In this document: piece by piece, positions 17,103 to 20,965 of the stretch | Numbering within the stretch: position 1 is the first letter of the stretch | Layout of the letters: the number at the start of each line of letters is the position of its first letter | Virus record (IMG/VR): IMGVR_UViG_2778261692_000006 | Direction: 5' to 3' (one strand) | Length of the DNA: 30,349 nucleotides | Source of the DNA: a virus | Lineage: Duplodnaviria > Heunggongvirae > Uroviricota > Caudoviricetes | The notes under the pieces: model-generated | Database searches by the model: none | Told to the model about the DNA's origin: nothing | Seen by the model: the letters and a program-made list of their open reading frames with translations, nothing else | Made by a program: the position numbers and the translations under genes

Positions 17103-17392
17103 TGGTGGATTTACGTAAAGCGGCGCGGGGGCAGATGTGCACCGTCAGAATTCCTGGCTACTGCAATCACAATCCCGAAACTTCTGTGCTGGCGCATTAC
17201 AGGCTGGCGGGGACGTGCGGAACAGCGACAAAACCACACGATATGCAGGCTGCGATTGCCTGTAGCTCATGCCACGATTTAATCGACGGGCGGGTAAAAA
17301 CCAGCGATTACACCAAAGAAGAATTACGCCTGATGCACGCAGAAGGTGTTTTTCGTACGCAAGAAATCTGGAGAAAGGAAGGTTATTTATGA
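17102..17392 (+). CDS. YbcO-like Cys-rich protein (DUF1364, putative nuclease)
   Basis: 96 aa with Cys cluster C..C...C...CSSCHD; position before Q as for DLP12 ybcO; start overlaps the upstream stop (TAATG). Confidence 0.55.
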   Translation: MVDLRKAARGQMCTVRIPGYCNHNPETSVLAHYRLAGTCGTATKPHDMQAAIACSSCHDLIDGRVKTSDYTKEELRLMHAEGVFRTQEIWRKEGYL

Positions 17393-17943
17393 TTTACCCA
17401 ACAAATACAGGCAAAAGCGGGGAACACCTTCGTCTCACCACGCTGGAAAGTGTCTGGATTCAGGGAAAACTGCGCATGTGGGGGCGCTGGTCGTATATTG
17501 GCGGCGGTAAGACGGGGAATATGTTTAACCAGTTGCTGGCATCCAAAAAATTGACGAAAACAGCCATCAATGAAGCCCTGCGCAGAATGAAAAAAGTGGG
17601 AATGGATAAAATTGAGCTGGAAGCGTTTTTGCGAGAGATGATCAATGGCAAGCAAAAGACCTGGCTGGCGCATTGTACTGATGCAGAGGCGTTATGTATT
17701 GATCGAGTCATAAGTGAGGTGCTGGCAGAGCATCCTGGATTGATTAGTGTCCTCCGGCAACGGTATGAAGGGCGGGGGATGACTAAGCGCAAAATGGCTG
17801 AATTGCTAAATGATGCACATCCTGAGTGGTGTTACGCCACGTGCCGTAATCGCATAGATGCGTGGTTGAAAATGGCAGAGTTTATGCTCTATCTGCCGAT
17901 GCGTGATGCATTCTCTTCCGGGGATCTAAAAACCGTCTGTTGA
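17389..17943 (+). CDS. Q-like late-gene antiterminator
   Basis: 184 aa from MIYPTNTGK (ATGA overlap with YbcO-like stop); position immediately upstream of terminator hairpins and the late region; contains a W..GRW motif. Confidence 0.5.
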   Translation: MIYPTNTGKSGEHLRLTTLESVWIQGKLRMWGRWSYIGGGKTGNMFNQLLASKKLTKTAINEALRRMKKVGMDKIELEAFLREMINGKQKTWLAHCTDAEALCIDRVISEVLAEHPGLISVLRQRYEGRGMTKRKMAELLNDAHPEWCYATCRNRIDAWLKMAEFMLYLPMRDAFSSGDLKTVC

Positions 17944-18029
17944 CTCAATCTGTTATCCGGGGCTATATTCCTCACGCGCCAGCAAAATCTGGCGTCGGGA
18001 TTGGCGTCCCGGATGAAAAAGGCGACAAC

Positions 18030-18050
18030 AGACGCGCCAGCGTCTTTTTT
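18030..18050 (+). terminator. tR'-like terminator downstream of Q
   Basis: Stem AGACGC / GCGTCT with loop GCCA followed by TTTTTT; another hairpin CGCCAG caaaat CTGGCG lies about 40 nt upstream. Confidence 0.5.
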
Positions 18051-18208
18051 ATTGTCGTTTGCACTGTCACATCTCAATGGTGGGCTGTGTGGGGGCGGAG
18101 CGATCCGCGCCGGTTCCTTTTTCCCGGTTACGCCAACCCTGCACAGTTCACCACCATACTGATTGGCGTCAGCAGTGGTGATGATTCACATAGAAAAAGG
18201 ATCATCCT

Positions 18209-18763
18209 ATGGCTATTCAAATCTCAGTTGAAACTCTTTCCCCGATCACCCATAACCAAATCCCTGTCATTACTACCGAGCTTTTGGCACAACTTTATGG
18301 CACCGAAACTAATAACATCAAAGTGAACTATACACGCAATGCCGAGCGTTTTGTTTGTGGGAAACACTACTTCAAATTGGAAGGGGCTGAGTTGCGGGAA
18401 TTTAAGAACAAGGTTACTCAAAGTAACTTAGTTGCACCGCGTACAAAGCACCTCATCCTCTGGACAGAACGCGGAGCAGCCCGTCACGCCAAAATGCTGG
18501 AAACCGATCAGGCGTGGGAAGTGTTCGAAAAACTGGAAGACTGCTATTTCAGACAAAAGGATCCGTCAGCGCCAGCTTCATGCCAGAAAAGTTACGACAC
18601 GCGAGTTCTCTGTTATCAGCGAGGCGGTGTCACTGTTTCCACAATTCAGTTGCGGGATGATGATATTGTTATTTCCCTTGAGTCATGGCTGGAACTGGCG
18701 AGAGCCAATGGTTGGTTTGTTGTTCGCAGAGATAAACTGGTGGAAAGGCTGATGCAGCTTTAA
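18209..18763 (+). CDS. ORF6N-domain protein (antirepressor-like N-terminal domain)
   Basis: 184 aa; N-terminal 100 aa fit the ORF6N pattern as recalled (IPVITTELLAQLYG...HYFKLEGAELREFK...LILWTERGAARHAKMLETDQAWEVFEKLEDCYF); AAGGA Shine-Dalgarno. Confidence 0.5.
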   Translation: MAIQISVETLSPITHNQIPVITTELLAQLYGTETNNIKVNYTRNAERFVCGKHYFKLEGAELREFKNKVTQSNLVAPRTKHLILWTERGAARHAKMLETDQAWEVFEKLEDCYFRQKDPSAPASCQKSYDTRVLCYQRGGVTVSTIQLRDDDIVISLESWLELARANGWFVVRRDKLVERLMQL

Positions 18764-18859
18764 AAAAGTTCTTGCAATTTTAGCCATAAACTGCTTCAAT
18801 TCCGTTACGCTTCGCAAAGCTGTATCGCGAGGCGAACCAAGCGCATGAACTTTACCAGA

Positions 18860-18886
18860 ACCCGCCATTGAGCGGGTTTTGTTGTT
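18860..18886 (+). terminator. Rho-independent terminator after the ORF6N gene
   Basis: Stem ACCCGC / GCGGGT with loop CATTGA followed by TTTTGTTGTTT. Confidence 0.6.
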
Positions 18887-18900
18887 TCTGGAGAACACCC

Positions 18901-19173
18901 ATGAAATTTTATGAATTATCTTCTGATTCCCGATCTCAGGCCAAAATCACACTGGGTCAGTTGATTGTGGCTCGGGCTAACACCGGGGTGGATGATTTTG
19001 AAAATTTGAGGCATTGCATCGCTGCCGCGTTTATTGCGATGGAGCGCCATGAAAGCGCCCCTGAGGTTGGTGAGGGGCGTAGCGGGAACGGAATACCCGT
19101 TAATGGCGATCAAAAACTAGCATCCAACGTCGTGAACGTGATGATTCACTATCCGTGTGACTCTATAGCGTGA
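18901..19173 (+). CDS. Hypothetical 91-aa protein (moron)
   Basis: ATG at 18901 with GGAGA upstream (track ORF from 18868); no family recognised. Confidence 0.5.
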   Translation: MKFYELSSDSRSQAKITLGQLIVARANTGVDDFENLRHCIAAAFIAMERHESAPEVGEGRSGNGIPVNGDQKLASNVVNVMIHYPCDSIA

Positions 19174-19229
19174 CAGCGACAGTAAATTGGGTAAAATTTT
19201 CTACGCTGCAATATGCGAAAGGGGATGAA

Positions 19230-19799
19230 ATGAACGATCTGCCCGATGACTACTTTCTTGATGCTGACGATGATCTTGTCGATTTTCTTGAAAAACAGGG
19301 TGAAGACTGCATAGGTGAAATCTATCGGTCAAATTCAGTAAATAAAGAAAATGGCTATAAGCTGTTGAGCATCCTAATCGTCGGTATTGGATCTTCATTT
19401 TTGCTGTTAACGCAAAAGACGCAGATTGACTTTCTTAGCGCAGGCATTGCCGTTTTCACCGTGTACTGGTCAGTTTGTGCTATTTATCTTGTTATTAATG
19501 TGCTGACGGTTCACACATACGGACTTGTTTCCACATCACCTGCAGATTTGTATACCGAAGCTTATAAAGGGATTTGCGAGTCCGATTTCGAGAACCTTAA
19601 GGCAAGGGGTTTTGTCGGTAAAAATGACCGCCTTTCAGTGATGAGGCGGTACAGATTGAAAACGTTATGTGTGACTGCTGATGAGTTGCTCCAGGTCAAT
19701 GAAACCATAAGAACCAGACTGAAAAAAGCAAGGATAGCGACTATCCTTGCTCCTGTTTACGCGATTATTATTTCAGCTATCACTTACCTTTTTTTCTGA
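19230..19799 (+). CDS. Hypothetical membrane protein with acidic N-terminus and three predicted transmembrane segments (moron)
   Basis: ATG at 19230 with AAAGGGGA upstream (alternative GTG at 19170 overlaps the upstream stop); hydrophobic segments LLSILIVGIGSSFLLL, AGIAVFTVYWSVCAIYLVINVL and IATILAPVYAIIISAITYLFF. Confidence 0.55.
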   Translation: MNDLPDDYFLDADDDLVDFLEKQGEDCIGEIYRSNSVNKENGYKLLSILIVGIGSSFLLLTQKTQIDFLSAGIAVFTVYWSVCAIYLVINVLTVHTYGLVSTSPADLYTEAYKGICESDFENLKARGFVGKNDRLSVMRRYRLKTLCVTADELLQVNETIRTRLKKARIATILAPVYAIIISAITYLFF

Positions 19800-19926
19800 T
19801 TCCTTCAGCGGAATCACCAACGATCCTTCTACCGACTGAAAAACGGTCGGGTTGAACTGGGGCCGGTTTTTGCTGCTGTGTTGGCTGTGGCTTGCTTTCA
19901 CCTGCCGGCTTGTTTGACTGGCTCAT
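19780..19926 (-). CDS. Candidate 48-aa Pro/Gln-rich basic protein, convergent with the membrane-protein gene
   Basis: Hand translation MSQSNKPAGESKPQPTQQQKPAPVQPDRFSVGRRIVGDSAEGIRKKGK; GGAGA Shine-Dalgarno 5 nt upstream; palindrome GATAAGGTTATC just upstream; below the ORF-track cutoff. Confidence 0.3.
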   Translation of the reverse strand: MSQSNKPAGESKPQPTQQQKPAPVQPDRFSVGRRIVGDSAEGIRKKGK

Positions 19927-20020
19927 CTAATTCTCCATATTTGATAAGGTTATCTTTGGCGATTTAACGATATCAAACACGAGGATATACCGCCAGAAGC
20001 TTAATCTGGCACTCCATCTG

Positions 20021-20045
20021 GCCCCGGCATGTCCCGGGGCTTTTT
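20021..20045 (+). terminator. Strong Rho-independent terminator upstream of the lysis cassette
   Basis: 7-bp GC stem GCCCCGG / CCGGGGC with loop CATGTC followed by TTTTT. Confidence 0.7.
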
Positions 20046-20143
20046 CGTTGTTAGGCTCCGGAAACATCCTCGACTTCTTGTGAGCAAGCCTGAGGGCCTG
20101 AATCTTACACTTAGCACCATCCGAACTCTCGGAGGTGAGGCTT

Positions 20144-20485
20144 ATGAAAATGCACAATGCCCCTCATTCCTGGCCTGACTTACTGGAACTCTTACAAAGT
20201 TGGTGGCGTGGAGATACGCCGCTGGGCGCAGTGGTTATGTCAATTATTATGGCTGGTTTGCGCATTGCCTATTTTGGCGGTGGCGGCGGCTGGAAACGAA
20301 AAACGCTTGAGATTCTGCTTTGTGGTGCTCTGACGCTGACCTTTGCATCCGCGCTTGAGTATGTCGGATGGCCTAAATCACTTTCTGTTGCCATTGGTGG
20401 TGGGGTGGGGCTGATTGGTGTTGATGCTATTCGTGGTGCGGCAATGAGGGTCATCGGTAACAAGTTCGGTGCCCATAAGGAGTAA
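20144..20485 (+). CDS. Holin, lambda S-like with Met-Lys-Met dual-start motif
   Basis: MKMHNAP... with GGAGG 8 nt upstream; hydrophobic segments; directly precedes the endolysin gene (track ORF from a GTG at 20135). Confidence 0.7.
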   Translation: MKMHNAPHSWPDLLELLQSWWRGDTPLGAVVMSIIMAGLRIAYFGGGGGWKRKTLEILLCGALTLTFASALEYVGWPKSLSVAIGGGVGLIGVDAIRGAAMRVIGNKFGAHKE

Positions 20486-20488
20486 TTA

Positions 20489-20965
20489 ATGCAGACACTT
20501 AATTCCCAGCGTAAAGCTTTCCTTGATATGGTGGCATGGTCAGAAGGAACAGATAACGGACGGCAGAAAACCAGAAATCACGGTTATGATGTTATTGTCG
20601 GTGGCGAACTGTTCACTGATTACTCCGATCACCCCCGCAAACTTGTCACGCTAAATCCGAAACTCAAATCAACAGCCGCCGGACGTTACCAGCTTCTTTC
20701 ACGCTGGTGGGATGCCTACCGCAAGCAACTTGGTCTGAAAGATTTTTCTCCAGAAAGCCAGGATGCTGTAGCGCTGCAGCAGATTAAAGAGCGTGGCGCT
20801 TTACCGATGATTGACCGCGGCGATATTCGTCAGGCAATCGACCGTTGCAGCAATATCTGGGCTTCGTTGCCGGGCGCTGGTTACGGTCAGTATGAACATA
20901 GAATCGGTGACCTGATTGCCCGATTTAAAGAAGCTGGTGGGGGGGTAAATGAAGCTGAGATATAA
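20489..20965 (+). CDS. R: Endolysin, lambda R-type lytic transglycosylase
   Basis: 158 aa, near-identical over long stretches to lambda R as recalled (NSQRKAFLDMVAWSEGTDNGRQKTRNHGYDVIVGGELFTDYSDHPRKLVTLNPKLKS...). Confidence 0.9.
   Translation: MQTLNSQRKAFLDMVAWSEGTDNGRQKTRNHGYDVIVGGELFTDYSDHPRKLVTLNPKLKSTAAGRYQLLSRWWDAYRKQLGLKDFSPESQDAVALQQIKERGALPMIDRGDIRQAIDRCSNIWASLPGAGYGQYEHRIGDLIARFKEAGGGVNEAEI

Follow-up and report, generated by a model that had tools for sequence, protein, structure and literature searches.

The 30,349-nt stretch of DNA analysed here (IMG/VR virus record IMGVR_UViG_2778261692_000006; the whole stretch is called the window below) belongs to a lambdoid prophage of the Escherichia coli type. 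In the interval between its Q-type antiterminator gene and its holin gene, a small open reading frame (ORF) on the minus strand (positions 19780–19926; 48 codons plus TGA) lies tail to tail with a plus-strand gene for a 189-amino-acid (aa) membrane protein (19230–19799). The small ORF runs from an ATG at 19926–19924 to a TGA at 19782–19780 and translates as MSQSNKPAGESKPQPTQQQKPAPVQPDRFSVGRRIVGDSAEGIRKKGK. The original prediction, made from the letters of this DNA, had described a Pro/Gln-rich ORF of 48 aa with a GGAGA Shine–Dalgarno (SD) sequence and an overlap of about 20 bp with the membrane-protein gene, and these points were borne out: GGAGA occupies 19932–19936 (complement), 5 nt before the ATG; the overlap is exactly 20 bp, the stop codon of the membrane gene being at 19797–19799; and the 48 residues include 6 Pro and 6 Gln. 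With a further 10 Lys or Arg residues, the product is hydrophilic and has no hydrophobic segment.

This ORF is a real protein-coding gene under purifying selection. A tblastn search with the peptide retrieved a 42%-identical ORF in phage vB_Apl-pPE4, annotated as gp33, which converges on a membrane-gene homologue of 66% identity and overlaps it; the same convergent pair is found in Escherichia phage 673R7, Serratia rubidaea and Yersinia vastinensis. Pairing was counted over 80 viral contigs recovered with the membrane protein, together with the other loci collected, wherever the flank was sufficient. A homologue of the small ORF was present in all 85 membrane-gene loci with enough flank (33 protein variants from several enterobacterial genera), always convergent to the membrane gene and overlapping it by 20, 26, 32 or 35 bp. 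Among 38 distinct nucleotide versions, the median pairwise ratio of non-synonymous to synonymous substitution (dN/dS) was about 0.22 in the called frame; four other frames gave 1.0–1.3, and the antisense frame with which it has third codon positions in common gave 0.43. The called frame was also the only one free of stop codons in all 38 versions, the others being interrupted in 22–38 of them. Only about 7 of the 48 codons are shared with the membrane gene, and the ratio of about 0.22 was unchanged when the overlap was removed and the 43 alignment columns before it were kept. In the unique homologous loci inspected, an SD-like GGAG, GAGG or AGGA was seen ahead of the start. The frame thus stood up to the comparison of conservation and codon substitution across homologous prophages, which the original prediction had put forward as its own check.

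The further claim that the ORF is unannotated holds for the exact variant but not for its family. PGAP does not call it in five E. coli genomes that carry the exact cassette, but relatives are in the databases as PHROG 14506, as a RefSeq hypothetical protein of 71 aa and as gp33 of vB_Apl-pPE4. Residues 1–48 match positions 19–67 of the 71-position PHROG 14506 profile (E 3.5e-13), and a 53-aa E. coli variant matches it with an E value of 6.3e-33. A profile search of 5.8 billion proteins gave 51 clusters. All of them come from Enterobacterales, with Escherichia, Salmonella, Yersinia, Serratia, Citrobacter, Leclercia and Providencia represented, and all are unnamed or labelled 'hypothetical'; Edwardsiella and Proteus prophages carry the pair too. 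The small family is therefore already known as a database protein, and what is new in this respect concerns only the annotation of this variant. PGAP calls the 71-aa form, which has an extended N terminus, in a sister variant. We considered such an extension, or an upstream leader peptide (RefSeq MFDIVKSPK...), and rejected it: an in-frame TAG closes it in the window, and the leaders contain no conserved in-frame start codon. The 71-aa form is probably an artefact, and the first 18 positions of PHROG 14506, which fall outside our match, probably correspond to this upstream start, closed by a stop in the window. As a separate observation, the 53-aa E. coli variant has a run of seven A at codons 3–5 (GAA AAA AAC), and another database member has a frameshift in a T-run near its C terminus.

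Members of the small-protein family share an N terminus of the form MS-x-x-NKP..E, followed by a Pro/Lys/Gln-rich spacer, and a C-terminal motif F-x-x-x-R-x-x-VGDSA, followed by a basic tail that mirrors the Phe-rich end of the membrane protein. AlphaFold modelling gave a predicted local distance difference test (pLDDT) score of 63, with essentially no secondary structure and no stable fold, and the small protein is thus predicted to be disordered. A Pfam scan detected no domain in it, DNA-binding domains included. The 189-aa protein has three hydrophobic helices (at about 42–63, 66–100 and 166–189), an N-terminal region that is acidic (net charge −9) and a middle domain made basic by 13 Lys or Arg residues. 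Its residues 1–188 align with positions 1–188 of the 189-position PHROG 11870 profile (E 9.4e-77). It has 145 relatives at 90% clustering, and a profile search of 1.84 billion representatives with its family gave only 94, at 50% clustering. Both window proteins therefore have full-length PHROG matches, to entries that carry neither a function nor a record of the pairing.

The two genes are invariably found as a tail-to-tail pair that overlaps by 20–35 bp. When the test was reversed, 53 of the 54 small-ORF loci with room for it also carried the membrane gene, and none carried the membrane gene alone. The gene for the most divergent small protein (46 aa) once more converges on one for 189 aa; the two overlap by 20 bp and sit next to a Q gene of a different family. 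Small-protein and membrane-protein types also co-vary across loci (Spearman 0.50), with clusters that correspond mostly one to one.

Upstream of the small gene, the original prediction had noted a palindrome flanked by inverted 7-mers. The 12-mer in question, GATAAGGTTATC (19943–19954), is not a perfect palindrome: its reverse complement is GATAACCTTATC, its 5-bp arms enclose a non-symmetric GG, and it is not conserved in homologous loci. The 7-mers TTTGATA (19940–19946) and TATCAAA (19971–19977) are indeed there, but they are the ends of a longer inverted repeat (arms 19940–19952 and 19965–19977; 13 nt, 85% complementary), which belongs to a hairpin common to other cargo genes. The hairpin itself spans 59 nt (19930–19988; no strand assigned) and is defined by the inverted repeat and by a covariance model, which scores it at 76.4 bits. 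Its apical core, TTGGCGATTTAAC (19956–19968; YTGRTATYGTTAAATCGCCAAAAGTAAC in the minus sense), is nearly invariant, and the arms around the core vary between loci yet remain complementary. RNAalifold on a plain MAFFT alignment of the leaders returned no structure, because the outer stem shifts register; we therefore used a hand-seeded covariance model, which finds the 59-nt element in all loci. In the resulting alignment, 85.8% of cells are paired, against 34–48% when the partners are slid by 1–3 columns, and compensatory changes occur in 10 of the 21 pairs, with U-A, U-G and C-G variants at single stem positions. Rfam gave no hit at E ≤ 1 in 19900–20060. A second copy of the core, which could supply a trans-acting partner for the loop, was sought in the window and not found.

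The hairpin is not private to the small ORF. When viral contigs were searched for exact copies of the core, 103 DNA stretches came back, in about half of which the adjoining start codon belongs to the small-ORF family; the remaining copies adjoin the start codons of at least 10 unrelated reverse-oriented genes between Q and the lysis genes. These alternative cargos include a YmfI-like 92-aa protein, a 67-aa zinc-ribbon protein that heads a three-gene operon, and proteins of 148–179 aa, and in most of them the outer stem pairs a CCUC-like stretch with the SD sequence of the downstream gene. Because the same core fronts so many unrelated genes, the 59-nt element is a leader common to the reverse-oriented cargo of a slot before the lysis genes rather than an operator specific to the small ORF. 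Compared with models of candidate defence systems, some of the alternative cargos gave matches, to PDC-M04A (E 1e-32) and, more weakly, to PD-T4-10 A and B (E 1e-4 and 9e-8) and PDC-M14A (E 5e-5), and judged by these sequence matches the Q–holin interval looks like a hotspot for defence cargo marked by the element. At eight loci, the reverse-oriented cargos to the left of the core include the zinc-ribbon 67-aa gene followed by weakly PD-T4-10-like A and B genes, DUF3800 (PDC-M04A-like) and DUF2441 genes, and several genes without a family. In several of these cases a late-strand gene overlaps the 3′ end of the cargo by 100–160 nt.

The pair of genes behind this leader is a mobile accessory unit, or moron, in the Q–lysis cargo slot of lambdoid prophages of Enterobacterales. 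It is absent or replaced in otherwise homologous prophages, and its neighbours include holins and Q proteins of different families. Matches to the window from phages and E. coli break at about 19949, where other prophages have the YmfI-like gene or another cargo. With respect to the features expected of a moron, its presence is variable and it has a predicted terminator of its own, and a conserved −10 element is seen for the membrane gene only. A literature search returned no description of the cassette or of the slot.

The predicted transcription signals outline two convergent units. A promoter-like site, GTGACA-16-TAAAAT (19170–19197, plus strand; 10 of 12 positions matching), precedes the membrane gene, and in the majority of 30 distinct contexts GGTAAAAT is conserved about 35 nt before its start codon, often with a terminator further upstream. 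Given the conserved −10 TAAAAT and the frequent upstream terminator, the membrane gene looks like a self-contained transcription unit. Downstream, just before the holin gene, lies an intrinsic terminator (GGCCCCGG-loop-CCGGGGC and five T; 20020–20046, plus strand; 8 pairs, 7 of them G-C), and an equivalent hairpin with a U-run is present in most related loci; as predicted from its sequence, this terminator would end membrane-gene transcripts that lack Q modification. Between it and the leader hairpin is a second short hairpin (GCCAGA-N7-TCTGGC, 19992–20010; no strand assigned), found at the same position with different arm sequences in most related loci. On the minus strand, a 10-bp hairpin followed by six U (GCAAGGATAG-tcg-CTATCCTTGC, 19722–19750) lies inside the membrane gene, 30 nt past the stop codon of the small ORF. 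It recurs at this position, again with differing arms, in 31 of 31 distinct loci and is the probable 3′ end of the small-gene transcript. With predicted ends at 19722 and 20046, the convergent transcripts would overlap by about 260 nt; a small-gene mRNA starting near 19990 would be complementary over its full length to the tail of the membrane-gene transcript, which has to continue as far as the 20020–20046 terminator. In this respect the antisense partnership that the original prediction had suggested is upheld at the level of prediction, since the small-gene transcript is expected to run antisense to the membrane gene at its 3′ end.

Two further observations concern these signals. By eye, in the loci read through (window 19728–19750 and homologous positions in 31 loci), the invariant Arg168 of the membrane protein is encoded by AGG, the rarest arginine codon in E. 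coli, and this AGG pairs with the CCU of the downstream Ile-Leu codons in the conserved hairpin; the pairing suggests an RNA-structure constraint inside the membrane coding region. Separately, a candidate promoter for a plus-strand small RNA inside the small ORF (TTGACT-16-CATATT, 19914–19941) had no conserved equivalent in homologues by eye and was rejected as a general feature. It is probably fortuitous, although in this variant it could drive a plus-strand RNA of about 100 nt into the leader hairpin and the terminator.

We propose, with somewhat less than even confidence, that the cassette is a two-gene moron whose three-helix inner-membrane protein, controlled by a disordered small protein and by antisense transcription, would serve exclusion, abortive infection or the control of membrane integrity. 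In this model, transcription of the small gene would start at the shared leader and run counter to the late operon, giving an mRNA of about 250–270 nt from about 19990 to about 19722. Its small basic product may act in the cytoplasm as a regulator or an antidote, by way of either the basic middle domain of the membrane protein or its acidic N-terminal region. The convergent transcripts would overlap across the whole small gene and could damp each other, through antisense pairing or transcriptional interference. During the lytic cycle, read-through by Q-modified polymerase would silence the small gene, and the membrane protein would be made just ahead of the holin. We infer that the small protein is a regulator or neutralizer, that the two transcripts damp each other and that Q tips the balance. 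The biological role, like that of other cargo in the slot, would then be phage exclusion, abortive infection or membrane-integrity control.

The part played by the leader hairpin in this model has two alternative versions. In the minus sense it could be a 5′ leader that sequesters the ribosome-binding site of the cargo mRNA, given that GGAGA sits in the 3′ arm and is paired in the minus-sense fold. In the plus sense it could instead be a structured antisense partner within the late-strand RNA. Structured leaders and kissing antisense hairpins are known from hok/sok and CopA/CopT. Our element resembles these in its SD-containing stem, its conserved apical loop and its perfectly complementary hairpin on the opposite transcript; it differs in having no Rfam match and in being common to many unrelated downstream genes in one prophage slot. 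A bolder extension of the proposal, which we consider doubtful, is that the cassette represents an undescribed two-component prophage system for defence or of the toxin–antidote type, in which the small protein and convergent antisense transcription gate a three-helix membrane effector, with the hairpin and its invariant UUGGCG loop acting as a generic riboregulatory off-switch for Q–holin cargo. Under such an off-switch, Q-dependent late transcription, or the mRNA of the plus-strand partner, would rapidly silence whatever reverse-oriented defence cargo is in the slot and so prevent self-harm in the phage's own lytic cycle.

Several results weigh against the proposed model. When all leaders were scored with a sigma-70 position-weight matrix, no small-gene promoter was conserved in position; the best candidates in the window, GTGCCA-17-TATATC and TTGATA-18-TAACCT, do not hold across loci. 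Only in the window type does a strong U-run follow the 3′ hairpin; in most relatives the run is weak. The leader hairpin folds more stably in the plus sense in 19 of 21 cases, and is then followed by the second hairpin and the strong terminator; in a strand-neutral count over 52 distinct copies, 96 G·U pairs are specific to the plus sense and 53 to the minus sense, which is a lean rather than proof because the copies are related. Together, the more stable plus-sense fold and the G·U excess fit an antisense or 3′ untranslated region role better than a mask over the ribosome-binding site. At two loci the A7 run is reduced to six A, so that the small ORF is frameshifted and the membrane gene is intact. 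Such A-run and T-run frameshifts may be sequencing errors or natural slippage; if they are real, the small protein is not an indispensable antidote.

The scans for known domains and folds count on the same side. Pfam, NCBIfam and PADLOC (PADLOC-DB v2) returned nothing useful for either cassette protein, and a fold search was uninformative. In PADLOC-DB v2 the small protein had no hit, and the single hit of the membrane protein (E 0.029) is not meaningful. Against Pfam, the window membrane protein had no hit at E ≤ 1, SLATT and 2TM pore-forming domains included, and ten distant members of its family gave nothing family-related past the curated cut-offs; sequence searches of the PDB with both family profiles found nothing significant. 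Its likeness to SLATT and 2TM effectors is only general, in the form of two transmembrane helices and cytoplasmic helices. Genomic context is what suggests that the membrane protein may be an effector and that its role may lie in defence.

Among the alternatives, the one that survives best reverses the two roles, so that the small protein would be an effector that acts in the lysogen against the host or an incoming phage, and the membrane protein a Q-dependent counter-factor or self-immunity protein. The precedent is the taiEcA/atiEcA 'noncontiguous operon' of phi80, in which a reverse-oriented defence gene lies within the Q-dependent late operon and is expressed in the lysogen, at a lower level once Q is expressed (He et al. 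2024, Nat Commun; PMC11364771). Tai is a soluble 26-kDa defence protein, and Ati a small late protein encoded upstream of the packaging genes (PMC11364771). This paper surfaced as an analogue in our literature search, and tai/ati is, by analogy, the nearest documented arrangement: in both cases a reverse gene lies in a Q-dependent late unit beside a late-strand partner, here as judged from the genes. The orientation is the same as that of taiEcA and atiEcA, other cargo under the same leader is also reverse-oriented and in part defence-like, and several other cargos have a late-strand partner that overlaps their 3′ end. The two systems differ, however, in that our reverse gene encodes a disordered protein of 48 aa, the reading frames overlap, the site lies between Q and holin, and the partner is a membrane protein whose gene has its own −10 element. 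With that element and the usual upstream terminator, the membrane gene does not look Q-dependent, and a disordered 48-aa protein without a detectable domain would be an unusual effector. We consider a reversal of roles unlikely.

Less probable again is the possibility that the inverted repeat is a DNA operator, bound by a dimeric regulator of the reverse-cargo promoter, and forms no RNA structure. The core is almost invariant across genera and contains TTGATA, a −35-like hexamer, and the covariation of the arms might, in principle, follow a symmetric binding protein that evolves along with them. Yet the arms are free to change while the core is fixed, and the outer arm in most cases pairs with the SD sequence of whichever cargo follows; because changes in the arms keep this cargo-specific pairing, an RNA stem is favoured over an operator. 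The U-A, U-G and C-G variants at single stem positions likewise point to RNA pairing. Moreover, no regulator gene travels with the element, and the window contains no second copy of the core.

A slightly lower probability still attaches to the minus-strand transcript being mainly an antisense RNA, acting in the manner of a type I toxin–antitoxin system, with the peptide secondary or dispensable. Convergent 3′ overlaps are known among type I loci, such as bsrG/SR4 and txpA/RatA of Bacillus subtilis prophage regions and par of pAD1. The present pair shares with them a membrane-targeted product, a convergent partner RNA complementary to the 3′ end of the mRNA, transcripts that overlap on opposite strands (20 bp for the ORFs and about 260 nt with the predicted ends), structured ends and a prophage location, and the frameshifted small ORFs coexist with an intact membrane gene. 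In the plus sense the hairpin loop also reads UUGG, a YUNR-like motif of the sort that marks antisense kissing loops. On the other hand, toxins of this type are shorter than about 60 aa, whereas the putative toxin here has 189 aa, three helices and two soluble regions and is no short hydrophobic peptide. The antisense transcript is also not devoid of coding content: its protein frame is under purifying selection (dN/dS about 0.22, including the 43 columns before the overlap), it is preceded by an SD sequence in the unique loci inspected, and its N-terminal and C-terminal motifs are conserved across genera. Nor does the cassette match type II toxin–antitoxin systems, which have toxin and antitoxin in a single operon and a DNA-binding domain in the antitoxin: its genes are convergent, and its small protein, predicted to be disordered, lacks any Pfam domain. 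A chance open frame, its conservation imposed by the overlapping membrane gene or the plus strand, could be suspected from the short, low-complexity ORF that PGAP skips in the exact variant, but it is excluded for practical purposes by a dN/dS of about 0.22 outside the roughly 7 overlapping codons of 48, by stops in every other frame (22–38 of 38 versions) and by the motifs and SD sequence conserved across genera.

The preferred model, in which the small protein and antisense transcription regulate the membrane protein, also has parallels among prophage morons. Membrane proteins for exclusion or abortive infection include RexB of lambda (with RexA), SieA and SieB of P22 and gp15 of HK97. Like these, the 189-aa protein is an accessory membrane protein of a temperate phage encoded as an autonomous unit, and some of the known cases are two-gene systems with a cytoplasmic partner. 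Unlike them, the present cassette lies at a different position and is convergent and overlapping, and the Pfam, NCBIfam and PADLOC scans detected no homology.

The neighbouring genes complete the picture of the late region. To the left of Q (DUF1133; 17389–17943) are a DUF1367 (NinB-like) gene and a DUF1364 gene, and between Q and the membrane gene are an antirepressor-like ORF6N gene (18209–18763) and a 101-codon ORF belonging to PHROG 26625 (18868–19173). To the right come a lambda-family holin (about 20144–20485; PGAP places its start at 20144) and genes for lysozyme, spanins and terminase; all of these are on the plus strand. At 20135–20152 (plus strand) the holin frame begins GTG AGG CTT ATG AAA ATG (MRLMKM), which we take to resemble the dual-start (Met-Lys-Met) holin/antiholin arrangement of lambda S. 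The PHROG 26625 gene is elsewhere convergent with the reverse YmfI-like 92-aa gene, with a 15-bp overlap and the same leader hairpin; this pair, present in other E. coli prophages (L002, 3102–3596; L088, 1543–2037), is a second tail-to-tail pair of the same design. In 17500–20600, the only Rfam matches were three RNAs 3′ of Q and before the ORF6N gene (17963–18158, plus strand): isrK (17976–18050, 79 bits), the C4 antisense RNA (18073–18158, 74 bits) and the c4 a1/b1 target (c4-a1b1; 17963–18015, 52 bits). Together with the ORF6N gene, this segment looks like an antisense-controlled cassette of the P1 immI or Gifsy-1 IsrK kind within the late region.

The phage in which the tblastn relative was found, vB_Apl-pPE4 (PP818812.1), is recorded as infecting Actinobacillus pleuropneumoniae and shows an E. 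coli-like lambdoid gene order: a Hok-family gene, ORFs of 600, 291 and 555 nt, and then the cassette with the same leader core. The three ORFs match the DUF1367, DUF1364 and DUF1133 genes of the window in length and spacing, and it may be worth checking which host was assigned or where the module came from.

Three features appear to be undescribed: the small protein is strictly paired with the membrane protein, the two genes overlap convergently, and the Q–holin cargo slot is marked by a shared hairpin. On the minimal reading only, the cassette is one more conserved moron of unknown function. If the proposed model is true, a widespread enterobacterial prophage pair, now listed as 'hypothetical' or left unannotated, would become a defined module of two parts, the smaller of which is often missed by annotation pipelines. 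The Q–holin slot would be a cargo hotspot with a searchable core, TTGGCGATTTAAC, that could be used for finding accessory and defence genes. The shared hairpin, in turn, would offer a testable mechanism for the shut-off of cargo at late transcription, a question left open for tai/ati of phi80.

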